DNA from: Candidatus Limnocylindria bacterium | Lineage (GTDB): Bacteria; Chloroflexota; Limnocylindria; QHBO01 | NCBI GenBank assembly: GCA_039917955.1 | Contig: JBDSIN010000143.1 | Location: 1 to 35,589 of the forward strand | Reading direction: 5' to 3' | Length of the DNA stretch: 35,589 bases | Shown here: positions 2,698 through 32,787 of the stretch, piece by piece | Numbering within the stretch: the stretch's first letter is position 1 | Layout: each line of letters opens with the position of its first letter | Translations under genes and position numbers: made by a program | Notes under the pieces: model-generated | Told to the model about the DNA's origin: nothing | Seen by the model: the letters and a program-made list of their open reading frames with translations, nothing else | The model's database searches: none

Positions 2698-3378
2698 ATG
2701 AGTGAGGCCGCGCGCATCCTGGTCATCGACGACGATCCCAAGATCAGGGCGGTCGTGCGCCGCGGCCTGGCCTACGAGGGCTATCGCGTGGTCGAGGCGG
2801 GCAGCGGGGAGGAGGGGCTCGAGAAGGCCCGCGAGCATCTACCGGACCTGGTCGTCCTCGACATCATGCTGCCGGGCATGGACGGGTTGGAGGTCACGCG
2901 CCGACTGCGCTCTGCCGGTGACCAGGTCGCGATCCTGATGCTGACGGCGCGCGACCAGGTGACCGACCGGGTCGAGGGCTTGGAGACCGGCGCCGACGAC
3001 TACCTCGTCAAGCCGTTCAGCTTCGAGGAGCTTCTGGCCCGTGTCCATGCCCTGCTGCGGCGGCGAACCAGCCCCGCCGGCGAGACCCTGCGCTTCGCCG
3101 ACCTTGAGCTGGACGTCGACGCGCGCGAGGCACGCCGTGGCGCCCGCGTCGTCGAGTTGACCACCACCGAGTTCAACCTGCTCCTGCTGCTTCTGCGCCA
3201 CCCGCGCAAGGTGCTGACCCGCGACATCATCATGGAGCACGTATGGGCGTACGACTTCGACGGCGAGTCGAACGTACTGGAGGTATATGTTCGCTACCTG
3301 CGCAACAAGCTGGAAGCGAATGGCGAGTCCCGCCTGATCCAGACCGTCCGCGGGGCTGGCTACGTCCTCAAGGAGTGA
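2698..3378 (+). CDS. OmpR/PhoB-family response regulator
   Basis: Receiver domain (ILVIDDD...[13 protein letters not shown]...KPF) plus winged-helix output domain ([22 protein letters not shown]...VRGAGYVL). Confidence 0.95.
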
Positions 3379-4784
3379 TGCTCCTCCAGCGTCGGCGGCC
3401 AATCCGGACCCGGCTTGCGTTGATCTATGCCGGACTCCTTGCCGGCGCGCTCCTCGTCTTCGGCATTGGTGTCTTCGTCGTGCTGCGTGACGAGCTCGAG
3501 CGCTCGTTCGACGCCGCCCTGTTCGCGAATACGGAGCACGCCGCCGGCGCCTTCGCCCAGGATATCGACGCCGAGGGCCGCCTGAGCCCATCCGAGCGTC
3601 TCATCGAGCAGTTTGCCTCGACAGGCGGCCGCGTGCTGGTCCTTGATCTGGACGGCGGTGTGCTGGCCGATTCGGCGCCATCAGACTCCGGCAGGCTGCC
3701 ATTCACGCCCGACGACCTGGCCAGCGCCGACCACCACGCGCACGCGGTGCGCGAGCTCGCTGTCGACGATGACATCGTCCGGCTCTCCGTTGAGCCCGTG
3801 ATGCTCCCGAACGGGCAGGTCATCGGCTACGTGGCCTGGGCCGACTCGACGAGACCCTTGCGCGACCTGCTAGCGACTGTCGGCGGCGCGCTCGTAGTGG
3901 CCGGCCTGCTGGTGACCAGCCTGGCCATGATTGGCGGGCTCGCCCTCGCACGCCGCGCCCTGGCGCCGGTCGCCGACGTAACCGAGACGGCACGGGCGAT
4001 CTCGCTGTCGGGCGATTTCGCGGCTCGGGTCGACGCGGGCTCGCCGACAGACGAGGTTGGCGAGCTGGCAATTGCCTTCAACGAGATGCTCTCGGCGCTC
4101 GAGCAGAATCATCAGGCTCTGCAGCGCTTCCTCGGGGACGCGTCACACCAGTTGCGCACGCCGCTCACCACGATCCGAGCCAATTTGGACCTCGCGCAGC
4201 GGTCCGGGCTGCCGACGGAAGAGCGCCTCGCCATCCTCGCCGATGCCCGCGACGAGGCGGAACGGATGGGTCGCCTCGTCGGCGACCTTCTCTCGTTGGC
4301 CCGCGCTGAGTCCGGTGTACGGATCCGGGTTGAAGCGGTGGAACTCGACGCACTGCTGGTGGAGTCCGTCCGTCGACAGCGCGAGGCAGCCCCGCATGTG
4401 CGCATGAGCGTGGCCGCCGTTGAGCCTGCCATCGTCGACGGCGATCGCGACCGGCTGCACGAGCTGATCGGGATTCTTCTCGACAACGCGGCGCGCTACA
4501 CGCCGGCGGGAGGCAGCGTCGCGGTCAGACTCGCGGTGCGGGACGGGCGCGCGATCGTCCGGGTGGAAGACAGCGGCATCGGTCTCGACGAGCAGGACCG
4601 CGAGAGGGCCTTCGAGCGGTTGTACCGCGGATCGCGTGCTCGCGACCTGCGTCCGGGTGGCACGGGTCTGGGCCTGGCGATCGCACGCTGGATCGTTGAG
4701 TCACATGCCGGCACGATCGAGCTCACCGATCGCGAGGGCGGCGGAACGGTGGCGATCGTGACGCTGCCGATGCGTGCGTTGTGA
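3378..4784 (+). CDS. Sensor histidine kinase (2 TM, about 140-aa extracytoplasmic loop, HAMP, HisKA, HATPase_c)
   Basis: TGATG overlap with the regulator gene. H-box SHQLRTPLT, N-box LLDNAARYTP, G-boxes DSGIGL and GGTGLGLAI. The sensor loop contains DHHAHAV. Confidence 0.9.
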   Translation: MLLQRRRPIRTRLALIYAGLLAGALLVFGIGVFVVLRDELERSFDAALFANTEHAAGAFAQDIDAEGRLSPSERLIEQFASTGGRVLVLDLDGGVLADSAPSDSGRLPFTPDDLASADHHAHAVRELAVDDDIVRLSVEPVMLPNGQVIGYVAWADSTRPLRDLLATVGGALVVAGLLVTSLAMIGGLALARRALAPVADVTETARAISLSGDFAARVDAGSPTDEVGELAIAFNEMLSALEQNHQALQRFLGDASHQLRTPLTTIRANLDLAQRSGLPTEERLAILADARDEAERMGRLVGDLLSLARAESGVRIRVEAVELDALLVESVRRQREAAPHVRMSVAAVEPAIVDGDRDRLHELIGILLDNAARYTPAGGSVAVRLAVRDGRAIVRVEDSGIGLDEQDRERAFERLYRGSRARDLRPGGTGLGLAIARWIVESHAGTIELTDREGGGTVAIVTLPMRAL

Positions 4785-4847
4785 CCGCGACCCGTGTCCT
4801 GGTCGCCGACGACGAGGCGGCCACCGCAGTCGCGGCGTCAGCAATGT

Positions 4848-4874
4848 CTCAGGGAGCGCTCAGATCAGACTCAG
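4848..4874 (+). promoter_or_regulatory. Phased CTCAG box (site S2), upstream of the HMA-like/ABC operon
   Basis: CTCAGggagcgCTCAGatcagaCTCAG, three perfect pentamers at 4848/4859/4870. The ATG at 4897 is 27 nt from the third repeat start. Confidence 0.5.
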
Positions 4875-4896
4875 CCTCCGATATGACCCTGCTGGA

Positions 4897-5130
4897 ATGA
4901 ACGCCGGAAGCGCAGTCAGGATCCCCGTCCACGGCCTCGGTTGCGGTGGCGGCGGCGCGACGACGATCGAGCGCGAGCTGGCCCGTGCGGCCGGCGTTTT
5001 GCGGTCGTACGTCAACCCGGCCACCGAGACGGCGTACATCGAATACGACCCCGTCCAGACCGACGCCGGGCGCCTGGCGCAGGTTATCGAGCACGCGGGC
5101 TACCGACCCGGACCCGCGTCGGAGGCGTGA
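4897..5130 (+). CDS. HMA-fold (heavy-metal-associated-like) protein with degenerate metal loop
   Basis: Ferredoxin-like HMA pattern VRIPVHGLGCGGGGATTIERELARAAGVLRSYVNPATETAYIEYDP...VIEHAGY. The usual GMTCxxC loop is replaced by GLGCGGGG, leaving a single Cys. Confidence 0.7.
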   Translation: MNAGSAVRIPVHGLGCGGGGATTIERELARAAGVLRSYVNPATETAYIEYDPVQTDAGRLAQVIEHAGYRPGPASEA

Positions 5131-5133
5131 GCG

Positions 5134-6231
5134 GTGCTTCTGGCCCGCCGCAACCTGCTCCACGACCGAACCCGGTTCGCGCTGAGTGTCCTGGGTGTCG
5201 CCGTCTCGATCGGGCTCATCCTGCTGCTCTCCGGCTATCGTTCGGGCGTCTATCAACAGTCCTCCGCGTACCTCGACAATACGCCCGGCAGTGTGGTGGT
5301 GGCCGAGCGCGGAATCCGCGACTTTCTTGGGACGGCCTCAGTCCTGCCGCCGGGCGCGGAGCAGACCGCCCGCGAGCGCCCCGGTGTCGACGGCGTGATC
5401 CCGGTGGTGTCGCAGTTCGTCATCTTCGAGCGCCACGGCCGCAAGGACGGCTTCTTCCTGATCGGTTACGACCCCGCGGCGGGTGGCGGCCCGTGGCGAC
5501 TGGTCGACGGGCGCGAACCGGCCGCTGACGACGAGCTGGTCATCGACCGCACGACGGCCGCCCAGCACGAGATCGCCATCGGAGATCAGGTCCGGGTGCT
5601 GGACCGCGACGCGACCGTGGTCGGCCTATCGGATGAGACGACCTTCTGGGCCGGCTCGGTCGCCTTCGCCCGGATCACCACGCTCGAGTCGTTGCTGCGC
5701 GCTCCGGGCCTGCGCAGCTTCCTGCTTGTGAGCCCGGCCGCCGGGGTGAGCCCGGAAGCGCTCCGCGACCAGCTCGCCCTGCCGGGAACGGAGGTGCTCC
5801 TGAAGAGCGAGATCATCGCCAACGACCGGCAGTTGATGGCGCGGGTGTACGACGCGCCGATCGGGTTGATGGTTGGCATCGCCTTCCTCGTGGGAGTGCT
5901 GGTGGTGGGGCTCGTCATCTATACCGCCACCATCGAGCGACGGCGGGAGTACGGGGCGGTCAAGGCCATCGGCGCCAGCAACCGGACACTGTACCGGGTG
6001 GTGACCACGCAGGCGCTTATCGCGACGGTCGCCGGAGCGGTAGTCGGGGTAGGGCTGGCCTACGGCGGCGGTGCCGCGCTGATGACCTGGCGGCCGCAGT
6101 TCCTGGTGGCCATCGAGCCGGCCGCCGTCGGCGTCGTCCTGGGCAGCAGCCTGCTGATGGCGCTGCTGGCCGCCCTGATCCCGGCCCGGGCGATGGCCCG
6201 CCTGGAGCCGGCCGAGGTCTTCCGGGGATGA
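5134..6231 (+). CDS. FtsX/MacB-type ABC permease (half-transporter 1)
   Basis: N-terminal ARRNLLHDRTRFALSVLGVAVS helix, a large extracytoplasmic loop and a C-terminal FtsX bundle (ERRREYGAVKAIGASNRTLY). GTG lies 8 nt after GGAGG. Confidence 0.85.
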   Translation: MLLARRNLLHDRTRFALSVLGVAVSIGLILLLSGYRSGVYQQSSAYLDNTPGSVVVAERGIRDFLGTASVLPPGAEQTARERPGVDGVIPVVSQFVIFERHGRKDGFFLIGYDPAAGGGPWRLVDGREPAADDELVIDRTTAAQHEIAIGDQVRVLDRDATVVGLSDETTFWAGSVAFARITTLESLLRAPGLRSFLLVSPAAGVSPEALRDQLALPGTEVLLKSEIIANDRQLMARVYDAPIGLMVGIAFLVGVLVVGLVIYTATIERRREYGAVKAIGASNRTLYRVVTTQALIATVAGAVVGVGLAYGGGAALMTWRPQFLVAIEPAAVGVVLGSSLLMALLAALIPARAMARLEPAEVFRG

Positions 6232-7358
6232 GCGCAGCGTGGGTCCTGGCCCGTCGCAACCTGGCCGGCAACCGGGTCCGGCTGCTGGTCTCGGTCGGTA
6301 GCGTCGCCCTCGCCCTGTCGCTGACGATCGCGTTCGACGCGATCTTCGCCGGGGTCGCGAACCAGCTGACGAAATATGTCGATCGGGCCGGCGCGGACGT
6401 GTGGGTCGCCCAGGCCGGCGTGCGCAACCTCCACATGGTGGCCTCCTGGCTGCCCGCCTCGGTGACCGGTGCCGTCAATGCCGTCGACGGCGTGGCCGAA
6501 GTGACCCCCATCCTGTACTCGACCGATACCATCGCCGCCGGCAACGATCGAGCGGTCGCGTACGTCATCGGGCTGCCGGCCGACGCGGCCATGGGCATGC
6601 CGTGGAACGTCGTCGACGGAGCGGACCGACCAGGCCCCGGCGAGGTGATCGTCGACCGCGGCTTCGCCAGCAAGGCCGGCGTCTCCATCGGCGATGACGT
6701 CACCGTCCTCGGCGGCGAGGCGCGGGTGGTCGGCCTGTCGAGCGGAACGGCCAGCCTGGTGAACTCGGTGGCCTTCGTCTCGTTCGAGGACTTTCAGACC
6801 ATGCGCGGCGGCGCCCCGGTCGTGAGCTTCGTCCTGGTCAGGGTCGTTTCCGGCGCCTCGCCGCAGGAAGTCGCCGCCGAGATCGAGCGCGTGGTCCCGG
6901 GTGTGACCGCCCAGTCGCGCGCCGCCTTCGCGGTCGAGGAGCGGCGATTGGTGATGGACATGAGCGCCGACGTCATCGCCATCGTGAACGCCGTGGGCTT
7001 CGCCGTCGGGCTGGCCGTGGTGGCGCTGACCGTCTACGTCGCCACGCTCGCCCGCCGGCGTGAGTACGGTGCCCTCAAGGCGCTCGGCGCGCACAATCGC
7101 TTCCTGTACGGGGTGGTGCTGAGCCAGGCCGTCCTGAGCGTCGCGCTCGGCTTCGTCGTGGGCCTCGCCTTCACCGAACTGATCAGCCTGGCGATTGCAG
7201 GGACCGATCTCAATCTCGAACTTGCCATCAGTGCCCCGTCGCTCGCCAAGGTCGGACTGTTCGCGGCGGTCATCGCCGGTCTCGCCGCGATCCTGCCCAT
7301 CCGCCAGATAGCGAGTCTCGACCCGGCGGTCGTCTTCCGAAAAGGAGCCGCACTGTGA
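6228..7358 (+). CDS. FtsX/MacB-type ABC permease (half-transporter 2)
   Basis: ARRNLAGNRVRLLVSVGSVAL helix and RRREYGALKALGAHNRFLY motif. ATGA overlap upstream and GTGA overlap downstream. Confidence 0.85.
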   Translation: MSAAWVLARRNLAGNRVRLLVSVGSVALALSLTIAFDAIFAGVANQLTKYVDRAGADVWVAQAGVRNLHMVASWLPASVTGAVNAVDGVAEVTPILYSTDTIAAGNDRAVAYVIGLPADAAMGMPWNVVDGADRPGPGEVIVDRGFASKAGVSIGDDVTVLGGEARVVGLSSGTASLVNSVAFVSFEDFQTMRGGAPVVSFVLVRVVSGASPQEVAAEIERVVPGVTAQSRAAFAVEERRLVMDMSADVIAIVNAVGFAVGLAVVALTVYVATLARRREYGALKALGAHNRFLYGVVLSQAVLSVALGFVVGLAFTELISLAIAGTDLNLELAISAPSLAKVGLFAAVIAGLAAILPIRQIASLDPAVVFRKGAAL

Positions 7359-8251
7359 CAACTCTGACGCTCGACGTGCGCGACGTCACCAAGCGCTTCG
7401 GTGACGGCGAGACCGCGGTGACCGCCGTTCGTGGGGTCACCCTCGCCGTCGACCCGGGCGAGGTCGTCCTGATCATGGGTCCATCGGGCTCGGGCAAGAC
7501 GACACTGCTGTCGATGATGGGCGCTCTCCTGCGGCCGACATCCGGCTCGATCCACCTCGACGGGACCGAGATCAGCGCCCTCTCCGAGGCTCGCCTGCCC
7601 GCTATCCGGCTGCGTCAGTTCGGGTTCATCTTCCAGGACTTCAACCTGCTGTCGGCCCTGTCGGTCCGTGAGAACGTGGCACTCGTCGCCGAGCTGGCGG
7701 GCCTCAGCGGACGTGCGGCGCGGGACAAGGCAAGCGCGCTGCTTACCGAGCTGGGCCTCGGCGAGCGGCTCGACTTCCTGCCGGAGAAGCTGTCGGGTGG
7801 AGAGAAGCAGCGGGTGGCGATCGCCCGGGCGCTGATCAACGATCCGACGCTCATCCTGGCCGACGAGCCAACCGCCAACCTCGACTCAAAGATCGGGCAC
7901 GAGATCATGCGCCTGCTGCGGCGCATTGCCAAGGACCAGGGACGCAGCGTGGTCATCGTCAGCCACGACCAGCGCATCCGTGACATCGCCGACCGCGTGC
8001 TGTGGCTCGAGGATGGCGCCTTCAAGGACATGGTGACGATGGCCACCGACCCGGTGTGCGGCATGGCGGTCGAGCGCGAGCGGGTGGTCAGCGGGAGTCG
8101 GGACGGGGAGACCTACTTCTTCTGCTCGAACGGCTGTCGGGCCGAATTCCTCGCCGCCGATGGGCAGGGGCCGCGGAACTGGATCCGGGCGGCGTCCGCG
8201 CTCATCTCACGACACACCACTCCAACCGGTGGTCGCCGCGGTCGCGACTGA
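7355..8251 (+). CDS. ABC transporter ATP-binding protein (MacB/LolD-like) fused to a C-terminal YHS/TRASH metal-binding domain
   Basis: Walker A GPSGSGKTT, signature LSGGEKQRVAIARAL, Walker B LILADEPT. The C-terminal DPVCGMAVE...YFFCSNGCRAEF (about nt 8045-8155) matches the YHS pattern. Confidence 0.9.
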   Translation: MTTLTLDVRDVTKRFGDGETAVTAVRGVTLAVDPGEVVLIMGPSGSGKTTLLSMMGALLRPTSGSIHLDGTEISALSEARLPAIRLRQFGFIFQDFNLLSALSVRENVALVAELAGLSGRAARDKASALLTELGLGERLDFLPEKLSGGEKQRVAIARALINDPTLILADEPTANLDSKIGHEIMRLLRRIAKDQGRSVVIVSHDQRIRDIADRVLWLEDGAFKDMVTMATDPVCGMAVERERVVSGSRDGETYFFCSNGCRAEFLAADGQGPRNWIRAASALISRHTTPTGGRRGRD

Positions 8252-8359: not shown

Positions 8360-8386
8360 CTCATCTACCACTCAGCCTGATCTCAG
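8360..8386 (+). promoter_or_regulatory. Phased CTCA box (site S3)
   Basis: CTCATctaccaCTCAGcctgatCTCAG, with repeat starts at 8360/8371/8382. It lies 58 nt upstream of the ATG at 8444. Confidence 0.45.
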
Positions 8387-11327: not shown

Positions 11328-11354
11328 CTCAGCGTGCTCTCAGGCAATGCTCAC
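11328..11354 (+). promoter_or_regulatory. Phased CTCAG box (site S5), upstream of the CsoR-like operon
   Basis: CTCAGcgtgctCTCAGgcaatgCTCAC, with repeat starts at 11328/11339/11350. It lies 55 nt upstream of the ATG at 11409. Confidence 0.45.
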
Positions 11355-11408: not shown

Positions 11409-11756
11409 ATGAGCATGTCAGCCGGTGATCGAGGGGGTGCTGTTCGGCACGCCCAGCGAGCAGCCGGCCAGGCCTCCGCCGTCGCCACCATGATCGCGGG
11501 CAGCCGGCCATTCGCCGACGTGGCGCAGCAGCTGCTCGCCGCACGTGGATCGCTCGACTCACTGCTCGTGCGCCTTGTCGAACTCGAACTTGAGGGTTGC
11601 GTCCCGAACCCCACGGCGCGCAGGGAGGTGCACGAATTGCTGCACTCCGCGAGGGGGCGGGCGGGACACAGCCGGCACGCGGCTCGCTCGCGGATCGGCC
11701 GGCCGCCGGAGGAGGCGGAACCGCCACGTGTCTTGGAAGGAAGGACATCTTCATGA
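11409..11756 (+). CDS. CsoR/RcnR-family (DUF156) transcriptional repressor, non-canonical ligand set
   Basis: Helical pattern AQRAAGQASAVATMIAGSRPFADVAQQLLAARGSLDSLLVRLVELELEGCV aligns by eye to the CsoR core. The first Cys is replaced by F and the His by E. Confidence 0.65.
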   Translation: MSMSAGDRGGAVRHAQRAAGQASAVATMIAGSRPFADVAQQLLAARGSLDSLLVRLVELELEGCVPNPTARREVHELLHSARGRAGHSRHAARSRIGRPPEEAEPPRVLEGRTSS

Positions 11757-12244
11757 CTCGTCGAGCTCAGACGGGACGCATCCAGCGGCATTCTCCAATG
11801 CCGGCTGACTCTCGATCGATGGCATCGGCCGTGCCGCGTTCGGTCCGGTTGGGCGCATTTGCGGCGCTGGCGCTGGTCGTGGGCGGTGTCGCCATCGCTC
11901 TCGTGGTGAGCCGCCTCCAGGGACCCGCCGCGACCGATACCACTGCCATCAGCGTTCGGGCAAGCATGGGTGGCTTCGATCCCTCGGCGCTCATCGTCAA
12001 GCCGGGTGAGACGGTTCGGATCGAGCTCACCAGCCTCGACACGGCGTTCCACAGCGACGGTGGCGGCTGGCATCAGTTTGCGATCGACGAGCTCGGCGTT
12101 GACTGGAAGGTCGGGCCGCAGACCAGCGAGGTCTTCGAGCTCATTGCCCCTACCGCGCCGGGGACCTATAGCTGGTACTGCGATATCTGCTGCGGCGGCA
12201 AGGAGAACCCGTCGATGCGCGGCACGCTGACCGTGGCGGCGTGA
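11753..12244 (+). CDS. Membrane-anchored cupredoxin-like protein with YCDICCGGKENPSMRG motif (paralog of 1099-1572)
   Basis: ATGA coupling to the CsoR-like gene. TM helix LGAFAALALVVGGVAIALVV. Shared blocks SMGGFDP, DEL, PGTYSWYCDICCGGKE, GTLTVAA. Confidence 0.75.
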   Translation: MTRRAQTGRIQRHSPMPADSRSMASAVPRSVRLGAFAALALVVGGVAIALVVSRLQGPAATDTTAISVRASMGGFDPSALIVKPGETVRIELTSLDTAFHSDGGGWHQFAIDELGVDWKVGPQTSEVFELIAPTAPGTYSWYCDICCGGKENPSMRGTLTVAA

Positions 12245-13113
12245 TGGGCGCCGCGACCGGGCAGCCGCGCGCTCGCCCGCGGCTGCTTATCCTCGTCGTC
12301 GGTGCGGTTGTGGCCGCCGCCGCCGCCGCTGTCCTGGTCCCGGGACCGGCGCCCGCGGGCCACGAGGCCCTGGCCGACCTGAGCCTGCCGGCCATCATCG
12401 GCGCCGGGGTGCTCGATGGCTTCAACCCCTGCGCCTTCGGGGTCCTCATCCTGTTTGCGACCTTTGCGCTGGGGCTGGCGGCACGCCAGTCGCTCGCCGC
12501 CGGCGCTGGTGCTCCCGGCGCTGGTGCTCCAGACGTACGGGGGGCTAGCCGCACCGTGCTCGGACTGGGGTCATTCTTCGTCCTCGGCGTGCTGGCCACC
12601 TACTTCCTGCTCGGCCTGGGCCTCCTGACCGTGCTCTCCTCGCTGACCGACTTCGGTGGCAACCATCTGCCGAGCCGAGTTGCGGCCCTCGTCGCGGTCG
12701 GGCTCGGGCTGTGGATGCTTCGCGACGTGCTCCTGCCCGATGCGCGCTGGAAGCTGGAGGCTCCCCACGCGCTCCACGGCCGCATGCGCGACTGGGCGCG
12801 GTCGAGCTCACCGGTGGCGCTCTTCGGCGGCGGCGTCCTGATCGGACTCTGCACGGTCCCGTGCAGCGGGGCGGTCTACCTCGGCGTGGTGGCGCTCCTG
12901 GGAGTCAGCGGCACGTTCTCGGCGGGCCTCGGCGGCCTCGCCCTCTACAACCTGGCCTACATCACGCCGCTGGTCGGCCTGCTGGTGCTGGCCAGCCGAC
13001 CGGGCCTGATCCGGGTCATCAATCGCTGGCACCTGGAGCACGCGGAGGGCACCAGGCTGCTCCTGGCGATCGTGGTCCTCGCGCTCGGGTTCGCGATTCT
13101 ACTGACGGTATAG
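12241..13113 (+). CDS. CcdA/DsbD-family transmembrane protein (paralog of 1574-2449)
   Basis: GTGATG overlap with the upstream stop. Motifs LDGFNPCAF and LCTVPCSGAVYL. Confidence 0.8.
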   Translation: MMGAATGQPRARPRLLILVVGAVVAAAAAAVLVPGPAPAGHEALADLSLPAIIGAGVLDGFNPCAFGVLILFATFALGLAARQSLAAGAGAPGAGAPDVRGASRTVLGLGSFFVLGVLATYFLLGLGLLTVLSSLTDFGGNHLPSRVAALVAVGLGLWMLRDVLLPDARWKLEAPHALHGRMRDWARSSSPVALFGGGVLIGLCTVPCSGAVYLGVVALLGVSGTFSAGLGGLALYNLAYITPLVGLLVLASRPGLIRVINRWHLEHAEGTRLLLAIVVLALGFAILLTV

Positions 13114-13923: not shown

Positions 13924-14745
13924 GTGCCGTTCGTCATCGACATCGACCCGATCGCCTTCTCGGTGCTCGGCCTTCACGTGCGGTGGTACGGGATCATCGT
14001 CGCCGGCGCGGCCGCGGTCGCAGTGTGGTTGACCATGCGTGAGGCGCGTCGCCGCGGCATCGGTTCGGAAACGGTCTCAGATGCCGCGATTTGGGCGGCG
14101 GTGGCAGCGCTCGTCGGTGGGCGAGCGCTGTACGTTGCCCAGAACGAGCTCGGCACGCTGGGCGAGGATCCAGCGCACCTGTTCATGGTCTGGAACGGCG
14201 GTCTCTCCTTCTACGGCGGGTTGCTCGGCGCCCTGCTCGCCCTGCTCGTCTTCGCCCGGCGGAGCGGAATCGCCCTTCTGCCACTGCTGGACGTGGCCGC
14301 GCCGGCCGCGGCGATCGGCCAGGCCATCGGGCACATCGGCTGCCTGATCGGCGGCGACTCGTATGGGATCCCCACCGACCTGCCCTGGGCGGTCGTCTAT
14401 CGAAACGTGGATGCCATGGCGCCGGTTGGCGTGCCGCTGCACCCCACGCAGGCGTACGAGGCGGTCCTGCTGGCCGCACTGTTCGCCGGGCTCTGGCTCG
14501 GCCGCGAGCGCCTGGCGCGGATCGGGGAGGGGGCGGTCGCCGCCACCTACCTTGTCGGCCTGGCCGGCATCCGCTTCGGGCTCTTCTATCTGCGCGACGA
14601 GCCCAGCGTGCTCCTGGGGCTCAAGACCGCCCAGCTGATGGGACTCGGGATTGCGCTCCTGGCGATCGTCCTCTTCGTCGCCGCGCGCCGGCAGACGCGC
14701 TCCACTCCCATCGCCCATGCACAGCTGGAGGCCATTCGACCATGA
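13924..14745 (+). CDS. lgt: Prolipoprotein diacylglyceryl transferase
   Basis: RWYGIIVA, WNGGLSFYGGLLGALLA, GHIGCLIGGDSYG and HPTQAYEA. GTG start after GGGGAG. Confidence 0.9.
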   Translation: MPFVIDIDPIAFSVLGLHVRWYGIIVAGAAAVAVWLTMREARRRGIGSETVSDAAIWAAVAALVGGRALYVAQNELGTLGEDPAHLFMVWNGGLSFYGGLLGALLALLVFARRSGIALLPLLDVAAPAAAIGQAIGHIGCLIGGDSYGIPTDLPWAVVYRNVDAMAPVGVPLHPTQAYEAVLLAALFAGLWLGRERLARIGEGAVAATYLVGLAGIRFGLFYLRDEPSVLLGLKTAQLMGLGIALLAIVLFVAARRQTRSTPIAHAQLEAIRP

Positions 14746-15203
14746 CAACCCACGTTCACGACCCCTCGATCGAGGCTCCTGACGGCGGCGGCAGCAGTTC
14801 CGCAGCCATCAGGCGACCTGACCCGGCCATCGCTCGACCGCGATGGCTCCTGCCCGCCCTCGCGGCCGTTGTGGTGGCCACGGGCCTGGTCGTCGCCGGC
14901 GTCGTCTCGGCTTCGACCGTGCTCTCGGTTGCGCTGTTCGGCGGTATGCTGCTGATGCATCTCGGGGGTCACGGCCACGGCGGGCATGGCGGGCATGGCG
15001 GGCATGGAGAGGCCGGACCCGGAGGCCACGGCGGGCACGACGAGCGAGGGGTAGTCCGCGACGAGGATCTCAGCGGGGGCTCAGGTGGCTCTCAGTCTGC
15101 GCGGCCAGGCTTCAATGACGGGCCCGATGACCGAGCCTCGGAGGATCAGAACCGCAACGAGACAACCGACCGTGACCAGCACCCTTCACACACCTGCCAC
15201 TGA
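14742..15203 (+). CDS. DUF2933-like His-rich membrane protein
   Basis: ATGA coupling to lgt. Two TM helices, then [30 protein letters not shown]. The 3' tail overlaps site S7 and the copA 5' end. Confidence 0.6.
15069..15095 (+). promoter_or_regulatory. Phased CTCAG box (site S7), immediately upstream of copA
   Basis: CTCAGcgggggCTCAGgtggctCTCAG, three perfect pentamers at 15069/15080/15091. Candidate copA ATGs at 15115 and 15127. Confidence 0.5.
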
Positions 15204-17307
15204 TTCCGCCGCGACCACGAGCGGCCACCACGGGGCCGCGGCCACGCATCACCCGGCGGCCGTGACTGCCCCTGCGGGCTCGCCGGCGCACGACCGCCAC
15301 GCCGAGTACCGCACGCTGATGCGCAAGTGGTGGTTCGGCGCGGCGGTCGGCGTGCCAACCATGATCCTCTCCTACCCGTGGCTCTTCCCCGGGCTGCGGG
15401 ACGCCTTCCCGCGCGGAGGCGTTGCCCTGTGGTGGCTGTGGGTCGCCATGGGCATCGCTTCGCTGGCCGTGCTGGTCTACTCGGGCGGCCAGTTCTTTAC
15501 CGGGGCCTGGGAGGCGCTCAGGCACCGCTCCGCGAATATGCACACCCTGATCGCGATCGGCACCGGAACGGCCTGGCTCTACTCGACCGTGGCCCTGCTG
15601 CTCCCGCAACTCTTCCCATCGGCCGAGATGACCGATGTCTACTACGACGTGACCGTCGTTGTCACCGCCCTGGTCGGGCTCGGCATGGCCATGGAGGTGA
15701 AGGCCCGCGGCCGGACCAGCCAGGCAATCGAGAAGTTGATCGGCCTGGCGCCCAAGATGGCACGCGTCGTCCGCGACGGGGTCGAGCTCGAGGTCCCCGT
15801 CGAGGAGGTTGTGGTCGGAGACACGGTCGTTGTGCGCCCCGGGGCGAAGATCCCGGTCGACGGCGTCATCACCGACGGGGTGTCGGCGGTCGACGAGTCG
15901 ATGATCACCGGCGAGTCGATGCCGGTCGAGAAGCGAGCCGGCGACGAGGTCATCGGAGCCACCATCAACAAGACCGGCGCCTTCCGCTTCAGGGCCACCA
16001 AGGTCGGGGCGGACACGACGCTGGCTACGATCGTGCGCATGGTCGGCGACGCGCAGGCCTCAAAGGTGCCGATCCAGCGCATCGTGGACGTCGTCTCGGG
16101 CTACTTCACGCCCGCGGTGATGATCCTCGCCGTGGCTGGCTTCGTGATCTGGTACGACTTCGGCCCGGCTCCGGCCTTCGCCTACGCCACCATCGTGGCG
16201 GTCACCAGCCTGATCATTGCCTGCCCCTGTGCCCTGGGCATGGCCACGCCCATGGCGCTGACCACCGGCGTCGGTCTGGCAGCTTCCAACGGGATCCTGA
16301 TCCGTTCCGGTGACGCCCTCCAGGCGGCCAAGCGGATCGACACCATCGTCCTCGACAAGACCGGCACCATCACCCTCGGCAAGCCCGCCGTGACCGATGT
16401 CGTCGTGGCAGACGGCTTCGAGGCCGATGCCCTGCTGGCCCTGGCGGCGGCCGCGGAGCGCGACTCCGAGCACCCGCTGGCGGCGGCGATCGTGGAAAGT
16501 GCGGCCGAGCGCGGCTTCGCCAGGCTCGAGCCGACGAGCTTCGAGGCCGTCCCCGGGTACGGTATCCGGGCGCTTCTCGGCGAGCAGCGGGTACTGGTTG
16601 GCAAGCGTGCCTTCCTGGAGGCCGAGGAGATCTCCGTTGGCGCCCTCGAGGAGGACGCATCCCGCCTGGCCGACGAGGGCAAGACGCCGGTATTCGTCGC
16701 AGTCGACGGCCGAGCCGCGGGGGTGGTTGCCATTGCCGATCCGGTGAAGCCGGACTCCCGAGGGGCGATCGCCGCCCTTCGCCGCCTTGGCCTCCAAGTC
16801 GTGATGATCACGGGCGACAACCACCGCACCGCGGACGCCATCGCGCGCCAGGTCGGGGTCGACCGGGTGCTGGCAGAAGTCCTGCCTGTAGACAAGGCTT
16901 ACGAGGTCCGCAAGCTCCAGCTCGAGGGCCGGACCGTGGCCATGGTCGGCGACGGCATCAACGACGCCCCAGCGCTGGCGCAGGCCGACGTCGGCTTCGC
17001 GATCGGCACCGGCACCGATGTCGCCATCGAGGCCTCGGATATCACCCTGATCTCCGGCAGCCTCCACGGCGTGGTCTCGGCGATCGCCATCAGTCGCGCC
17101 ACGATGCGCAACGTCTACCAGAACCTGTTCGGCGCCTTCGCTTACAACAGCCTCGGGCTGCCGGTGGCGCTCGGCGTCCTCTATCCGTTCATCGGGCTCC
17201 TGCTCAGCCCGCTCCTGGCCGCGCTGGCCATGAGCTTCAGCTCGGTGACTGTCATCTCGAATGCCAATCGGCTCAAGCACTTCAAGCTCGTGGAGGTGGC
17301 GGCATGA
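15115..17307 (+). CDS. copA: Cu(I)-translocating P1B-1-type ATPase lacking an N-terminal HMA domain
   Basis: [44 protein letters not shown] and MSFSS. The N-terminus is His-rich ([13 protein letters not shown]...HDRH) and has no GMTCxxC. Start is uncertain (15085 GTG, 15115 ATG or 15127 ATG). Confidence 0.9.
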
Positions 17308-17687: not shown

Positions 17688-17947
17688 TGACCAGTTCGTC
17701 TTCGATCATCGTTCGCGACTTGACCCCCGGGCCCGCGGCACAGTGCGTCGTGTGCGGCAAGGAGATCGCCGCGGGCGAGGGCCTGACCGCGCACTACGGA
17801 GATCGCACTCTCCGTTTCAAGTGCCCTGGCTGTCTCGCCCGCTTTGAGGAAGATCCTGACCGCTTCCTGGCCCGGGAACCGGAGGCCTGCTGCGCTTACG
17901 AAGGCCACCTCGATGCGTCAGCCAGCGAGTGGATCTGCGACCGATGA
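17687..17947 (+). CDS. Small Cys-rich TRASH/zinc-ribbon-like metal-binding protein
   Basis: TGATG coupling. CVVC-x22-CPGC is close to the TRASH pattern C-x2-C-x19-22-C-x3-C. An extra EACCAYEGH lies near the C-terminus. Confidence 0.6.
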   Translation: MTSSSSIIVRDLTPGPAAQCVVCGKEIAAGEGLTAHYGDRTLRFKCPGCLARFEEDPDRFLAREPEACCAYEGHLDASASEWICDR

Positions 17948-18463: not shown

Positions 18464-19696
18464 GTGCCGCGACGAAAGATAGGCCGGAGGACCCGATCGA
18501 GAGGACTGCCGGGTGTGATGCCCCGCCCAGGCATGCAGCGAGTTGGCGCGAGTGGCCATCCCACCGCTGAGCGTGACGGTGCATCGGGCGAGGTCGAGGC
18601 GGAGGCGCTGTCGATTACCCACTGGTTTGCATCTGAACCGGACGGCGATTCGTACGCGGCGACCGTGCGGTTCACGGGCCGACGCATCGGGGTGTCGGGA
18701 AAACCCGGGCCGCGGGACACCTTCGTGAAGGATGAGTCCGTCGATCGCGTCGTACCGGGAAGCGGCCCGGTTTCAGTCACCACCTGGGCATACGGACTCG
18801 AGCCCGGCGAGTGGACCGTCACCGCTGGCCTCACGCGCCCCACGCCCAGCGGGCGGGCTGGTCAGTCCTCCCAGGGTCGGAAGCCACCTGGCGGCCACAC
18901 CCTCCCAACTGCGGCATGGTCCTGGACGCGCTGGGCGCTGTCGGTCGGCCAATTCGCCCCGGTGAAGACGCGGTGGGCACCGTTGGTCCGCATGACCAGG
19001 ATGCCAGCGGTCATTCCGGGCAGCTGGTCGGGCCTGATCGCCGTGGGCATCGTCGTCGGCGCGGTGGTGCAGTCAGCACTGCTGGCGCGCGCCAACGTCG
19101 CGGTTGGGCTTTCGCTGCTGGTCGACCTGATCGCGCTGGCGTCAGGCATCTTGTTGGCGAAGCTGTGGTACCTGGCCCTGCAACCGCGCACCTCGTGGCG
19201 AGAATCGATCGGCGAGGGCTGGACCATGGACGGTATCCTCTTCGCGGCCCCGGTCGTGGGCGTCGCCGCGTTGACTGCGTTCAACGTGCCGATCGGCGTC
19301 TTTCTGGATGCCAGTGCGGCTGGCCTCTTCTTTGGCGTCGCCATCGGGCGGCTGGGCTGCTTCTTCACCGGGTGCTGTGCGGGTCGCTGCACGCGCTCCC
19401 GCTGGGGCGTCTGGTCCTCGGACCGCCGTGTTGGAGCCCGCCGCATCCCGACCCAGCTCCTTGAGTCAGCAACAGGCCTGCTCATAGGTGTCGCGTCCAC
19501 GTTGTTGGTTCTTGGCTCGCCCACGCCTGCCGGCTCGGTCTTCGTGGCGGCGGTCGCAGTCTACGTCCTCGTCCGGCAGTTCCTGCTCCGACTGCGGGCT
19601 GAACCGCACAATCCAATCAGGGTGCGGGTGACGGCTGCAGTTGCGGGCCTGGTGCTTGTAGCCACTGCGGGGATGATGTTGGCCAATGCGGGCTGA
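18464..19696 (+). CDS. Divergent Lgt-family protein with about 190-aa N-terminal extension
   Basis: GTG lies 6 nt after GAGGTGG. The C-terminal half has GRLGCFFTGCCAGR...RRIPTQLLES (Lgt arm and HPTQLYE-like motifs). The WxGGLS motif is replaced by WTMDGI. Confidence 0.7.
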   Translation: MPRRKIGRRTRSRGLPGVMPRPGMQRVGASGHPTAERDGASGEVEAEALSITHWFASEPDGDSYAATVRFTGRRIGVSGKPGPRDTFVKDESVDRVVPGSGPVSVTTWAYGLEPGEWTVTAGLTRPTPSGRAGQSSQGRKPPGGHTLPTAAWSWTRWALSVGQFAPVKTRWAPLVRMTRMPAVIPGSWSGLIAVGIVVGAVVQSALLARANVAVGLSLLVDLIALASGILLAKLWYLALQPRTSWRESIGEGWTMDGILFAAPVVGVAALTAFNVPIGVFLDASAAGLFFGVAIGRLGCFFTGCCAGRCTRSRWGVWSSDRRVGARRIPTQLLESATGLLIGVASTLLVLGSPTPAGSVFVAAVAVYVLVRQFLLRLRAEPHNPIRVRVTAAVAGLVLVATAGMMLANAG

Positions 19697-20174
19697 CGGT
19701 TCGAGGCTTCGCTCGGTACGACACGGCCGGCTCCGTTGGACCATTGGCCTGATTGGCGCGGCGCTCCTGATCTTGACCCAGGCAGGTTGCGTCGGTTCGA
19801 TGGGTCCGATGGGTCCGATGGGTCCGATGCATCCCGGCATGCACGGCCCTGGCGGTGGGAGCCAAGACGATGCCCCATCGCCAGTTCCGGGAGCTCCCGA
19901 ACTGGTCGCCACGGCCACGGAGTTCGCCTTCGAACCCGGTGAGCTGCGGATTCGCGTCGGCACGACCGTCAACCTCACGCTCGTCAACCGCGGTCAGCTC
20001 TACCACGACCTGAGCATCAGCGACCTTGGATTCGTCCTTACCGCCGATCCCGGTGACACCGCCAGCGGTGCCGTGACGGTCGCCGACGTCGGCCGATTCA
20101 GGTTCGTGTGCAGCGTGCCGGGGCACGCCGAGGCGGGGATGACTGGCACCCTGGTGGTCGAGGCGGAATTCTGA
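19686..20174 (+). CDS. Met-rich cupredoxin (type-1 copper site), probable lipoprotein
   Basis: Signal peptide ending LILTQAGC. MGPMGPMGPMHPGMHGPGG tract. Copper ligands YHDL...FVCSVPGHAEAGM. Confidence 0.8.
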   Translation: MRADGSRLRSVRHGRLRWTIGLIGAALLILTQAGCVGSMGPMGPMGPMHPGMHGPGGGSQDDAPSPVPGAPELVATATEFAFEPGELRIRVGTTVNLTLVNRGQLYHDLSISDLGFVLTADPGDTASGAVTVADVGRFRFVCSVPGHAEAGMTGTLVVEAEF

Positions 20175-20190: not shown

Positions 20191-20679
20191 CTACTCGACG
20201 ACGGGATACCCGAGGGCTCGCCAGGCGTTCATCCCGCCGTCGAGGTTCCACACGTTCGTAAAGCCGGCGGCGACCAGGGTGCGGGCAGCGATGGCGCTCA
20301 TCGAGCCGCTGCGGCAGTACAGCACGATCTTGGCCCCGAGCGGGGGCAGCTCAGCCAGCCGGCCGTCCATCCGGTCGAACGGAATGAACAGGTCCGTCGG
20401 GGCAATCTCGCCGTCATACGGTATGTGGACGTTGACCAGGGTGAAGTCCTTCGCCTCAAGCATGTCGGCCAAGCGGGCGGCGGTGATGTCGAGGTAGCTG
20501 CCTCCGCCGTCCACCGGCACGCGGACGTCGGTGTCAGCCGCGGGCTGGGAACCGCAGGCGGCCAGGAGGACCGCCAGCAGCAACCCGAGCGCCGCGTTGC
20601 CGCCCGACTTCCGCGTCAGGACGCGACGATCGTGATCGTACCGACCATGCCGGCCGCGTAGTGCCCGGTCAGGTGGCAC
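20191..20679 (-). CDS. Rhodanese-domain lipoprotein
   Basis: Lipobox LLAACGS and rhodanese active-site loop VLYCRSGSMS. No ATG is available. The start is GTG at 20679 (64-nt overlap with the upstream gene) or CTG at 20619 (cCTGA overlap with the upstream stop). Confidence 0.7.
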   Translation of the reverse strand: MPPDRALRGRHGRYDHDRRVLTRKSGGNAALGLLLAVLLAACGSQPAADTDVRVPVDGGGSYLDITAARLADMLEAKDFTLVNVHIPYDGEIAPTDLFIPFDRMDGRLAELPPLGAKIVLYCRSGSMSAIAARTLVAAGFTNVWNLDGGMNAWRALGYPVVE

Positions 20680-21128
20680 CCATAGCGGATGGTGCCTGCC
20701 TGCGTGAACCGCCAGGTCAGTTCGGCCTCCTCGCCCGGGTCGAGGGTCGCTTTGTTCGGCTCGTCGTGACCCATCCCCGCCATTCCGCCGCCGGCCATGT
20801 CGGCCTCGTGCTCGTCCTGCGTCTCCTCGTCGCCGAGGGTGAAGTCGTGCGGGATTGCCCCGGCATTGGTGACCCTGAAGGTCACCGTCTCGCCAACCCT
20901 GACCTCGACCGAAGCCGGGTCGAAGCGGAATTGATCGGACATGGCGATCTCGATCACCCGGTCCGCCTCGCCCGCTTCGGCAGGCTCGCCCCAAGCGAAG
21001 GTGCCGGCATCGGCGTCACTGGCCATGGGCAGGCTGGGGCTGGCCGATGGCTGGGTGCCCGTCGAGCAGGCGGCGAGGATCAGCAGCAGACCGGTGAGCG
21101 GCACGAGGCGAGTGGCGTGTCGGTGCAT
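20616..21128 (-). CDS. Cupredoxin lipoprotein (CopI-like) with Met/His-rich insert
   Basis: ATG at 21128 after GGAG. Lipobox LILAACS. Copper ligands IPHDF...YGCHLTGHYAAGM. Insert EHEADMAGGGMAGMGHDE. Confidence 0.8.
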   Translation of the reverse strand: MHRHATRLVPLTGLLLILAACSTGTQPSASPSLPMASDADAGTFAWGEPAEAGEADRVIEIAMSDQFRFDPASVEVRVGETVTFRVTNAGAIPHDFTLGDEETQDEHEADMAGGGMAGMGHDEPNKATLDPGEEAELTWRFTQAGTIRYGCHLTGHYAAGMVGTITIVAS

Positions 21129-21175
21129 GGGGATCTCCAGGTTTGGGGTGTTATGTCCGTCGGAGCCCTGAACAG

Positions 21176-21189
21176 CTTGAACATTCAAG
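21176..21189. promoter_or_regulatory. AT-rich perfect palindrome CTTGAAcaTTCAAG (candidate operator)
   Basis: Perfect 6-2-6 inverted repeat about 50 nt upstream of the minus-strand ATG at 21128, in the 177-nt gap after copB. Confidence 0.3.
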
Positions 21190-21305
21190 GCAGATCCGGA
21201 TGGCGACCGACCAATCATCCCCCGGAATTGCCGGGGAGGCAAATGAGGTCAGGATCGGACGGCAGCGTCGTGGGGAACCATGTGGGTGACGACCGAAGGG
21301 AAAGC

Positions 21306-23417: not shown

Positions 23418-23440
23418 GGATCGGTCTCGCTGCGGTGGAC

Positions 23441-23470
23441 GGTACTCCCCCCCAGTATATGCCCAGGGGT
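23441..23470 (-). promoter_or_regulatory. Candidate copB promoter/operator (C/G tract flanked by TAC..GTA, TATACT -10-like hexamer)
   Basis: Plus strand reads GTACTCCCCCCCAGTATATGCCCAGGGGT. It resembles CsoR-type TAC-N9-GTA operators with G/C tracts. TATACT on the minus strand (23454-23459) lies 37 nt upstream of the ATG. Confidence 0.25.
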
Positions 23471-23592
23471 CAAGGCGATGCCGGACAGGTGCGGGAAGGC
23501 GTGATCGGCCGGGACACCGAAACCCCGCCGCGCAGTGCGCGACGGGGTTTCCCGAGGGTCGGTTCCCGCGCTGGTGGGCGCAGGCGGCGCCC

Positions 23593-24354
23593 CTACCGTG
23601 CCCAGATGACGAAGCTGAACACCACCATCCCGCTGCCCAGATCGCGGGCGAACAGCGCGTTGTGTCCATTGTCACGAATCATCCGGCCCCACCCCGGTGC
23701 CGCCGAACCGTCGGCCGCGACCTGCCCGACCGTGGTCGGGCTGTCCAGGTGGCTGTAGATCGTCACGAGCTGCCCAAGGTCGTGTGAGTTCGGGTGCTCA
23801 TTGCTCGGCGGCCCGTCAGGGTCACTGGTGTAGTCCATGCAGGTGCCCAGGTTGGGGTTGCCGAAGGTCGCATCCTGGTGGTCGAGCCCCAGCGTGTGGC
23901 CGATCTCCTGGCACATCACAAGGTTTCGCCACGCGGGCGTGTTGTAGCTCGCCGTGTCGAAGTAGGTGTCGTTCAGCTTGACGGTGCCCTGAGTGATGTG
24001 ATCGCCCTGCGCCCAGATCGAGGCGACGCCGAGCCAGCCGTTGTTGCCGTACTTCGAGTTGCAGACATTGACCTGGCCGCTGATGGTCTTGCAGGTCTTG
24101 CCCTTTGCGACGGTGCCGTTCGTCTTGGACAGATCGAGAACCGTTGATTGCGACCAGTCAGCGATGCTCGTATTGAGGTAGTTGTCCCATGCTTGGGTGG
24201 CGCTGTCGACGACCTTGAGCGTGAACGGATTGGACGTCCGTGCCCAGTGGTAGCTACCCCACGAATGCGAGGCGCTGGCGGCCGCGGGGAACGCGGCGAT
24301 GATGACCGTGACCAGACCGATGACCGCCAGGCGGCGCGGGGAAGCCTTGAGCAT
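23593..24354 (-). CDS. Secreted metzincin-like protein with QExxHxxGxxH variant motif
   Basis: Signal peptide MLKASPRRLAVIGLVTVIIAAFPAAASA. VMCQEIGHTLGLDHQD fits HExxHxxGxxH except that the first His is Gln. SD GGAGGG lies 10 nt upstream. Confidence 0.6.
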   Translation of the reverse strand: MLKASPRRLAVIGLVTVIIAAFPAAASASHSWGSYHWARTSNPFTLKVVDSATQAWDNYLNTSIADWSQSTVLDLSKTNGTVAKGKTCKTISGQVNVCNSKYGNNGWLGVASIWAQGDHITQGTVKLNDTYFDTASYNTPAWRNLVMCQEIGHTLGLDHQDATFGNPNLGTCMDYTSDPDGPPSNEHPNSHDLGQLVTIYSHLDSPTTVGQVAADGSAAPGWGRMIRDNGHNALFARDLGSGMVVFSFVIWAR

Positions 24355-24457
24355 GACGCGGGGACCCTCCATGTTCAGTGGCGCGTGGTTCACGAGGATG
24401 GACGGAGTATGCACGACCGATGCAACTGCACCGGACCGCACTCCGGGGTCCGGGAGG

Positions 24458-25543: not shown

Positions 25544-25669
25544 CGGGGAACATGATACTCGCGCACGTTTATGCCGGTCGTGCGCAGGTGTTAGGTGCCG
25601 ATCGTCCTGCCCCGCAGCCGGGACCACCGTGCTACTGACTCTGTGCCACGGCGACCGTAAGGTCATGGC

Positions 25670-26584: not shown

Positions 26585-26621
26585 TCGCAGCGGTCCTCGG
26601 GCCGCGGTTAGACTGGGGCGG

Positions 26622-27368: not shown

Positions 27369-27372
27369 ACCG

Positions 27373-30428: not shown

Positions 30429-30600
30429 GAAACCCCGATGCGCTGTGCTTCGAGCGTGGACCGCCGACCGAAATGCGTCGAGGTATCCGCTGTCTTGAAG
30501 ACCCCACGATGCACTTGATAAGCGTGCCAGATCGCGACCAACCGTCCGTTTGACTCACGGCCTGCAACATGCAGCCCGTGCCGGGTGTCAAGCAGGTGAG

Positions 30601-32600: not shown

Positions 32601-32787
32601 GACCGCCCGCAACTGACGTTACCGGCGTAGTGGCCGCGGGTTACCACGGGTCAGTCGGGATCGCCGTTGCCGTGGTTCAGATGACAGCTCGGATGGTCGC
32701 TGAACCTTGACCGACGGCCCACACTACGCTGTGTTCGGGGCATGGCGGAGATTGGCCCCAGACCGGGCATTCGAGTCTGGAGGGACC

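Follow-up and report, generated by a model that had tools for sequence, protein, structure and literature searches.

The window analysed here is a 35,589-nucleotide stretch of DNA from a Candidatus Limnocylindria bacterium of the Chloroflexota (contig JBDSIN010000143.1), and its positions 4897–8251 hold an operon for an ATP-binding cassette (ABC) system whose ATPase ends in a YHS/TRASH domain. The operon is composed of four forward-strand genes: an HMA-like gene (4897–5130, 77 residues), permease A (5134–6231, 365 residues), permease B (6228–7358, 376 residues) and the ATPase (7355–8251, 298 residues). A first-pass annotation of the window had proposed that the four genes are translationally coupled, and this is borne out at each junction: permease A begins with a GTG codon 3 nt past the HMA-like stop, the permease B gene overlaps the permease A gene through ATGA, and the ATPase gene overlaps the permease B gene through GTGA.

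The ATPase is composed of an N-terminal ABC domain at residues 1–225 (Pfam ABC_tran, 121 bits) and a C-terminal extension. The extension had been read by eye as a YHS-type tail, and a profile search agrees, with PF04945 matching residues 231–269 (positions 8045–8161, forward strand) at 37.2 bits against a cut-off of 30.3. A conserved linker of about 8 residues joins the nucleotide-binding domain to the YHS domain. The fusion is genuine, since more than 60 independently assembled species-level genomes encode it as one uninterrupted frame, and the concern that an assembly error or a frameshift had joined two genes can be set aside. An AlphaFold2 model built from a diverse alignment has a mean predicted local distance difference test score (pLDDT) of 89.4, with values of 79–90 across the YHS region. 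When this model was searched with Foldseek, about 222 residues matched the nucleotide-binding domains of type VII ABC systems (MacB, YbbA, HrtA, FtsE and LolD) with a TM-score, normalized to the target, of about 0.9; MetN was also among the structural matches, and no solved ABC domain in that search covered the YHS tail. The best sequence matches in the PDB were 5xu1 (Spr0694), MacB and MJ0796 at E-values of about 1e-52 to 1e-53, with LolD, YtrE, BceA, YbbA and FtsE as further solved relatives, and the top NCBIfam matches were DevA, LolD, MacB and FtsE. On these matches the ATPase is placed in the MacB/LolD/FtsE clade, as the first reading of the motor had suggested.

Four residues of the tail, D232, C235, C257 and C261, are putative metal ligands and are invariant in the alignment of ATPase homologues. 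Their spacing, D-x2-C-x20/21-C-x3-C, is conserved and fits the D/C-x2-C...C-x3-C pattern defined for YHS/TRASH domains (PMC4626032), and nearly every tail conforms to the consensus DPVCGM-x(20-21)-[YF]FC[SA]xGC. An automatic test for the D-x2-C...C-x3-C motif was positive at 55 of 69 loci, and the failures were mostly fragments, premature stops or indexing errors. A survey of YHS-fused ABC ATPases, which the first-pass annotation had suggested as a check, found the fusion to be widespread and conserved. All of the best 120 protein clusters (at least about 79% identity) carry PF04945 beside PF00005, and when clusters are drawn at 50% identity, eight or more others, with representatives 45–59% identical, align through the tail and retain the ligands. 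In a scan of one genome per species, the trio of permease A, permease B and ATPase-YHS was found in about 65 metagenome-assembled genomes, most of them from Chloroflexota (Limnocylindria, Anaerolineae, Dehalococcoidia, Ktedonobacteria and Thermomicrobiales), and also from Rubrobacteraceae and Dormibacterota. A search from a plasmid-borne Rhodococcus homologue located the fusion in three cultured actinomycetes, Rhodococcus sp. WAY2 (plasmid pRWAY03), Mycobacterium hubeiense and Nocardia farcinica, and in metagenome-assembled genomes labelled Acidimicrobiia, Planctomycetota and Krumholzibacteria. Only one permease accompanies the ATPase in the actinobacterial versions, and it is equally distant from A and B (35–36% identity). 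One lineage, represented by locus L013 (6001–7104) and protein P0065, encodes a 368-residue ATPase with two tandem YHS/TRASH domains. A Haloferax plasmid match was rejected as an archaeal fusion, since its translation has no Cys-rich tail and the tail alignment is spurious. NCBI names these proteins only as "ATP-binding cassette domain-containing protein", the domain architecture being visible in the databases, and our literature searches found no published account of this fusion.

Each permease contains an extracytoplasmic MacB_PCD domain (PF12704) between the first and second transmembrane helices and an FtsX domain (PF02687) of four transmembrane helices; the scores are 63 and 54.4 bits for permease A and 51.5 and 56.7 bits for permease B, against cut-offs of 27 and 25.5. 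The two proteins are 34% identical, and permease B is a paralogue of A and its presumed heterodimer partner. The A-then-B order is kept in a Krumholzibacteria locus (L089), so the duplication is old. Matches of the permeases to solved structures are weak (E-values of 3.5e-5 to 3e-3) and comprise MacB, Spr0695, YtrF and 7w78. No conserved Cys or His is found in the transmembrane segments among 55–58 orthologues, only a few Met, and conserved His and Met residues on the extracytoplasmic side (H101 and H145 in permease A; H69-M70 and M243 in permease B) are too few for a metal site. With FtsX and MacB_PCD domains in the permeases and a nucleotide-binding domain of the MacB/LolD/FtsE/MJ0796 clade, the system is assigned by its domain content to the type VII (MacB/FtsX) ABC superfamily.

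Within that superfamily the operon had been likened to LolCDE, and this identity does not hold. The permeases score 23.4 and 18.2 bits with the lolCE model TIGR02212, against a cut-off of 362.45, and the ATPase scores 211.7 bits with the LolD model TIGR02211 (cut-off 307.75) and 179 bits with NF008639 (cut-off 360), which rules LolCDE out on curated cut-offs; no LolA-type gene is present among the window reading frames scanned with profile models. Chloroflexota are generally regarded as single-membraned, lacking an outer membrane, and strict Lol function would therefore have no destination in this host. Gene order differs as well, and LolD carries no metal domain. The likeness that remains consists of two paralogous half-permeases served by one ATPase, the type VII fold, Lgt and lipoprotein genes nearby, and a LolA_like gene in some relatives. 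The pairing of two half-permeases with one ATPase, which had been taken as a Lol signature, is not specific to Lol, being shared by FetBCD of the Campylobacter fetMP-fetABCDEF locus, in which FetB and FetC are distinct permeases, 28% identical and both required, with one ATPase (PMC10783030). FetBCD, compared here by its published description only, also resembles the window system in its link to the YHS-containing FetA and in metal handling, but its YHS domain belongs to a membrane protein of its own and has a predicted periplasmic location, and the system serves iron uptake (PMC10783030). The best NCBIfam matches of the window system are DevA (241.9 bits, cut-off 295.8) and DevC (about 42 bits, cut-off 290), both below cut-off, and DevBCA was rejected on these scores and on the lack of an HlyD-type (DevB) adaptor gene in the operon. 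FtsEX was likewise rejected, with FtsE at 206.1 bits against 264.85 and FtsX_Gpos at 16.7 against 225.

The leading gene of the operon encodes a protein with a Pfam HMA match (PF00403, 34.4 bits, cut-off 24.8), no signal peptide and one cysteine, which lies within GLGCGGGG. The observation that it has no CxxC site was made from this one sequence and extends to the whole subfamily: in the 33 clusters recovered by database search, the single-Cys site GLGCGG[GA]G is present in all 33, the second Cys of GMxCxxC is never present, and C16, G17, G20, N40, T43 and E44 are invariant. A recent TGC to GGC point mutation in the motif is ruled out by this invariance. The two CopZ models fall far short, at 25.6 bits (cut-off 91) and 20.7 bits (cut-off 95). 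By its conserved pattern the protein is an HMA-fold subfamily with a job other than that of CopZ, not a decayed chaperone. Its gene lies directly upstream of the trio only in the closest clade, at about 12 loci, and the protein is a clade-specific accessory partner.

The operon is preceded by operator-like direct repeats, GTCAG/CTCAG/CTCAG/CTCAG, at 4837–4874 on the forward strand with an 11-bp period. Within them the perfect triple CTCAG box noticed at first reading is confirmed as CTCAG-N6-CTCAG-N6-CTCAG at 4848–4874, with the in-phase GTCAG at 4837, and the box starts 49 nt upstream of the HMA-like start codon. Four further triple boxes were found on the forward strand: a weaker copy at 2542–2568 upstream of a response-regulator gene, one at 8360–8386 ahead of the transcription unit that follows the ABC operon, a SHOCT/cupredoxin unit, one at 11328–11354 ahead of a cupredoxin unit, and a perfect copy at 15069–15095 ahead of a P1B-type ATPase gene. 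All five (at most one mismatch) are intergenic, and none arose in 200 first-order Markov simulations; the paired CTCAG pattern has 13 matches against 3.07 expected, a number reached in 0 of 100 shuffles. The box is also conserved between species. It lies 49–50 nt before the HMA-like start in 7 of 10 aligned species (the window, L001, L005, L007, L011, L013 and L068) and about 50–150 nt before permease A at four loci (L008, L012, L017 and L072). The ten-species upstream alignment shows TCTCA-N7-CTCA-N7-CT.A as invariant within otherwise unconserved DNA, together with a conserved cAcgCT 7–8 nt before the ATG. We infer from this arrangement an activator-dependent promoter in which the repeats would replace the −35 element, with a leaderless or near-leaderless mRNA. 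A scan of the high-GC window DNA for consensus promoters and terminators gave nothing useful.

Directly upstream of the operon lie an OmpR-family response regulator (2698–3378, forward strand; Pfam Response_reg and Trans_reg_C) and a sensor histidine kinase (start at 3375 or 3378, end at 4784, forward strand; HAMP, HisKA and HATPase_c). The heavy-metal models TIGR01387 and TIGR01386 are near the top of their respective matches, and a regulator-kinase pair is also found upstream of the cassette at L001, L008, L013, L015, L017 and L025. The regulator is the likely candidate for binding the CTCAG repeats. Because the box stands ahead of the regulator gene, the Cu(I) P-type ATPase gene and two cupredoxin units as well as the ABC operon, the operon belongs to one copper regulon, and the boxes define a small copper regulon with probable autoregulation. 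Two P1B ATPases, one CPC-type and one CPH-type, are encoded in the surrounding island along with a TRASH protein and cupredoxins. The first of the two ATPases, at 15085–17307, is presumably a Cu(I) pump from its motifs CPC, YN and MSFSS; the second, at 21306–23675 on the reverse strand, has a CPH motif and a His-rich N-terminus and is of the CopB type.

This copper setting, together with the occurrence of HMA-fold and YHS modules on P1B copper ATPases (the P1B ATPase at L089 carries both YHS and HMBD), would suit a copper exporter, in which the HMA-like protein and the YHS tail form a cytoplasmic delivery chain like that from CopZ to CopA and the permeases expel Cu(I). We regard this as quite unlikely. 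The membrane helices have none of the conserved Cys or His residues that such a path might use, and solved type VII transporters have no transmembrane substrate channel. In addition, the HMA-like protein lacks CxxC and most of the family does without it, the LolA_like gene and the conserved protein beside it in two relatives would be needless for an ion pump, and two dedicated copper P-type ATPases are already present in the island.

Of 45 loci from various lineages, 18 have a P1B ATPase and 19 an OmpR-type regulator no more than 6 kb from the trio, and the loci with P1B neighbours are scattered over many branches of the tree. Among 148 flanking reading frames of the more distant loci, the most frequent domains were LysM (12), Peptidase_M23 (11), HMA (8), E1-E2_ATPase (7), Hydrolase (7) and two-component domains (6), with Lit, cupredoxin, YHS and LGT also present. 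The Nocardia cassette lies directly downstream of an LpqS-PALP-MFS-rhodanese cluster, which we take to resemble the copper-responsive lpqS-cysK2-rv0849 cluster of M. tuberculosis.

Several of these neighbours are cell-wall genes. In 9 loci that form an Anaerolineales clade, the trio is flanked, sometimes on both sides, by LysM and Peptidase_M23 genes; the LysM-M23 loci listed are L019, L020, L028, L030, L033, L046, L051 and L070, and also L034, and at L019 the LysM/M23 frame overlaps the ATPase gene at its end. M23 genes are also found near the trio at L008, L011 and L068 and in the Rhodococcus island, and in M. hubeiense (L087) the cassette neighbours include three YkuD LD-transpeptidases and YceG. 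Such genes are what would be expected if the system were a mechanotransducer like FtsEX or NosDFY with a protein client, either a cell-wall enzyme (an M23 endopeptidase or an LD-transpeptidase/MltG) or a cupredoxin being loaded with or relieved of copper. LD-transpeptidases are inhibited by copper (PMC11390936), FtsEX-EnvC and YbbAP-TesA are examples of type VII ABC systems that control enzymes, and the operator is common to the operon and the cupredoxins. A dedicated protein client is nevertheless very doubtful in our judgement, as the window contains no M23 or YkuD gene, M23 adjacency is mostly confined to one clade, the FtsE model falls below its cut-off, and the actinobacterial loci have no cupredoxins.

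Other neighbours concern lipid-anchored proteins. The first reading had counted two Lgt-family genes and several lipoprotein cupredoxins in the island, and both counts need qualification. The gene at 13924–14745 passes the Lgt equivalog cut-off, while that at 18464–19696 is Lgt-like by Pfam only (LGT, 64.6 bits; equivalog 32.9 against 118.9) and has an N-terminal extension of about 180 residues. A lipobox is present in just two of the cupredoxins, at 20616–21242 (reverse strand, LAAC) and 19686–20174 (forward strand, QAGC), and the remainder, judged by eye from the translations, seem to be anchored by a hydrophobic segment; a lipobox-like LAAC is also found in a rhodanese at 20191–20994 on the reverse strand. 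A second Lgt-family gene is likewise present at L003, and the Rhodococcus plasmid cassette adjoins lgt and a second lgt-family gene, with TlpA, CcdA, ResB, CcsB, DUF305, DUF6153, a CopY/BlaI-family regulator and the M23 peptidase nearby. At L089 (Krumholzibacteria, 5068–7115) and L092 (a metagenome scaffold, 3426–5445), a LolA_like gene (PF17131, 199.6 bits at L089) directly follows the trio. It is followed by a protein of about 400 residues that is 47% identical between the two loci, and then by CsoR and the YHS- and HMBD-containing P1B ATPase at L089 or by DUF411 and a cation-diffusion facilitator at L092. The pairing of LolA_like with the 400-residue protein suggests that the system extends past the cytoplasmic membrane, and would leave room for a Lol-like working of the family.

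These genes are the basis for a further alternative, in which the ABC system is a Lol-like extractor that removes (pro)lipoproteins from the membrane, either newly made or compromised by copper (the lipoprotein cupredoxins, for example), and works alongside the extra Lgt copies. Lit and LGT among the neighbours fit this proposal, as does the occurrence of lit2 with a second lgt on copper-resistance elements already described in Firmicutes (PMC8689077). We nonetheless consider it very unlikely, given that the LolC/E and LolD models lie far below cut-off, that the window has no LolA-type gene and its closest relatives are Chloroflexota, and that Lgt is found within 6 kb at only about 4 of 45 loci; moreover, PF17131 is LolA-like and not LolA.

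The closest precedent for the YHS tail is not a transporter. The class IIIc adenylyl cyclase of M. phlei carries a C-terminal YHS domain on an 8-residue linker and is activated by copper, with D178, C181, C204 and C208 as its proposed ligands (PMC4626032). The ABC ATPase has the same Asp and three-Cys pattern at its C terminus, a linker of similar length and a dimeric catalytic domain, and since the cyclase is a dimer with active sites at its interface, this correspondence favours a copper-gated motor. The output differs, the cyclase being an enzyme with copper activation demonstrated and the window protein an ABC ATPase known from its sequence. The two kinds of fusion occur side by side in M. 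hubeiense (L087, 9882–18594), where 5 kb separates the ABC-YHS gene from that of an adenylyl cyclase with YHS at its C terminus, of the class that copper activates in M. phlei, so that this locus has two YHS-tailed enzymes. A cytoplasmic metal sensor placed directly on the motor of a type VII machine, as the first-pass annotation had proposed, is therefore the most economical reading, with the YHS-tailed cyclase as its precedent (PMC4626032).

Extending that reading, we propose, at roughly even probability, that the operon encodes a type VII ABC mechanotransducer of the copper regulon which is gated by copper through its YHS tail and acts on an envelope substrate. The adjacent two-component system would switch the operon on through the phased CTCAG repeats, and the complex would probably be a heterodimer of permeases A and B with two copies of the ATPase, each carrying a YHS domain in the cytoplasm. 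Cu(I) is predicted to bind the Asp/Cys3 site of the tail and to alter closure of the two nucleotide-binding domains, so that cytoplasmic copper may gate, license or tune ATP hydrolysis. The extracytoplasmic MacB-type domains would then deliver a mechanical output to a hydrophobic or lipid-anchored envelope component or to an envelope enzyme, and copper ions would not be pumped through the membrane. Where it is encoded, the HMA-like protein would most likely be a docking partner of the ATPase or its YHS tail, and its lone Cys may let the two share one Cu(I). A mechanical envelope output is favoured because type VII systems have no known transmembrane path, because the helices lack conserved Cys and His, and because two relatives have a LolA_like protein and another conserved partner. 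Candidate targets are lipid-anchored or hydrophobic species, given the company of Lgt, Lit and LolA_like; cell-wall enzymes such as M23, YkuD and YceG; and cupredoxins through their metallation.

Several observations weigh against a copper-gated motor. About half of the loci have no copper gene within 6 kb, and since the neighbours differ by lineage (M23, LD-transpeptidases, Lgt or LolA_like), no single substrate can be read from them. The regulator and kinase fall below the curated cut-offs for heavy-metal two-component systems (239.6 bits against 279.2 for TIGR01387 and 201.3 against 292.55 for TIGR01386). The ATPases at L056 and L058 (Bellilinea-type) end cleanly after the ABC domain with no tail, and some members at 61–79% identity to the Rhodococcus protein also lack YHS, so the tail is dispensable in some lineages. 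The first AlphaFold2 run of the ATPase, from a shallow alignment, reached a mean pLDDT of 54 and was discarded. Finally, a YHS/TRASH domain may hold a structural metal, as in ribosomal protein L24e, or none, as in toluene-4-monooxygenase (PMC4626032). This last point leads to the alternative that the tail is a structural zinc ribbon which stabilizes or dimerizes the ATPase, with control by copper being transcriptional only, and the tail is indeed kept at loci that have no copper genes nearby. A purely structural role is unlikely, though, because the fusion is found consistently in copper contexts in many lineages, because its Asp and Cys3 ligands are those of the copper-activated cyclase rather than the Cys4 set of L24e, and because of the YHS-tailed cyclase beside the ABC-YHS gene in M. 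hubeiense.

A more specific form of the copper-gated motor, possible in our estimate though rather unlikely, is that the YHS domain, reading Cu(I) (with a single-Cys HMA relay in one clade), licenses a Lol-like extractor of copper-compromised lipid-anchored or hydrophobic envelope components, the cargo being passed at L089 and L092 to LolA_like and the 400-residue protein. If so, it would be the first case of an ABC motor gated allosterically by a metal through a sensor fused to the nucleotide-binding domain, and copper defence would include an ATP-driven clearing of the envelope besides ion efflux and oxidation. For the copper-gated motor in general, the consequences would be a new mode of regulation for ABC machines, a previously unrecognised energy-dependent envelope branch of copper defence, and a starting point for explaining why copper resistance is accompanied by additional Lgt, Lit, M23 and LD-transpeptidase genes. 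Type VII systems are known for moving antibiotics, toxins, lipoproteins or heme and for switching cell-wall hydrolases, and among those that we found none is linked to copper and none has a metal-sensing domain on its ATPase. The family is widespread, being found in many Chloroflexota as well as in Actinomycetota, Dormibacterota, Planctomycetota and Krumholzibacteria, and recurs in copper islands beside genes for lipoprotein maturation and the cell wall. The conserved CTCAG operator marks out a testable copper regulon in uncultured Chloroflexota, and cultured actinomycetes carry members of the family.

The window system was further compared with solved and described systems. Spr0693-0695, HrtBA, BceAB, YtrEF and YbbAP have the same permease build and a nucleotide-binding domain of the same clade, and the best PDB matches in this MacB-type family are 5xu1, MacB, 7w78, 9o9x and 9ge6; 7w78 is entered as a putative ABC membrane protein, and the heme exporter HrtBA is the subject of its sibling entries 7w7a-c. 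The window system differs in being a presumed heterodimer of paralogues, in its YHS tail, which is absent from every solved member, in having no membrane-fusion protein and in its place within a copper regulon, and the similarity of its permeases to this family is marginal. The C2 domain of MetN and the TOBE domains of ModC and MalK are also extra domains placed after a nucleotide-binding domain, where they could control dimer closure from the cytoplasmic side. They are found on importers, bind the transported substrate and inhibit, whereas the window domain has a zinc-ribbon-like YHS fold, belongs to a type VII machine and probably has a ligand other than the substrate. LmABCB3 of Leishmania has a TRASH-family domain fused to an ABC transporter, but it is eukaryotic and mitochondrial, and ABC type, organism and biology all differ (PMC4700571). 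Fusions of TRASH/YHS to other enzymes and to the Leishmania ABC transporter are thus already known, as are C-terminal regulatory domains on importer ATPases. A second MacB-type ABC system in the window, composed of an ATPase (26622–27368) and a fused double-FtsX permease (27298–29913, 871 residues) and followed by a PCC-domain protein, has neither a YHS tail nor a CTCAG box and so provides an internal contrast.

Additional genes were noted in the remainder of the window. One gene pair is present twice, at 787–1572 with 1562–2449 and at 11597–12244 with 12241–13113. Its first member is a membrane-anchored Cupredoxin_1 protein with a C-terminal CD.CCGGKE.P.M.G motif, and its second is a polytopic membrane protein of about 290 residues with NPCAF and CTVPCSG motifs, which has no Pfam or NCBIfam match and resembles a thiol shuttle of the CcdA/DsbD type. 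A small stand-alone TRASH protein (CVVCG...KCPGC, about 17714–17947) is encoded just past the Cu(I) P-type ATPase, and its homologues adjoin P1B ATPases at L018, L034 and L059. Next to the CopB-type ATPase gene, positions 23593–24441 on the reverse strand encode a secreted-looking protein of 282 residues that contains a metzincin-type zinc motif, HTLGLDH, and matches no family. In the long reading frame at 24458–26656 on the reverse strand, the ABC_tran, MalK OB and TOBE_2 domains are confined to the C-terminal half, so the first 370 or so residues are probably untranslated and the true start lies downstream. Positions 30550–33702 encode an ECF sigma factor and, after it, two beta-propeller proteins with Kelch repeats; these seem unrelated to the copper genes.

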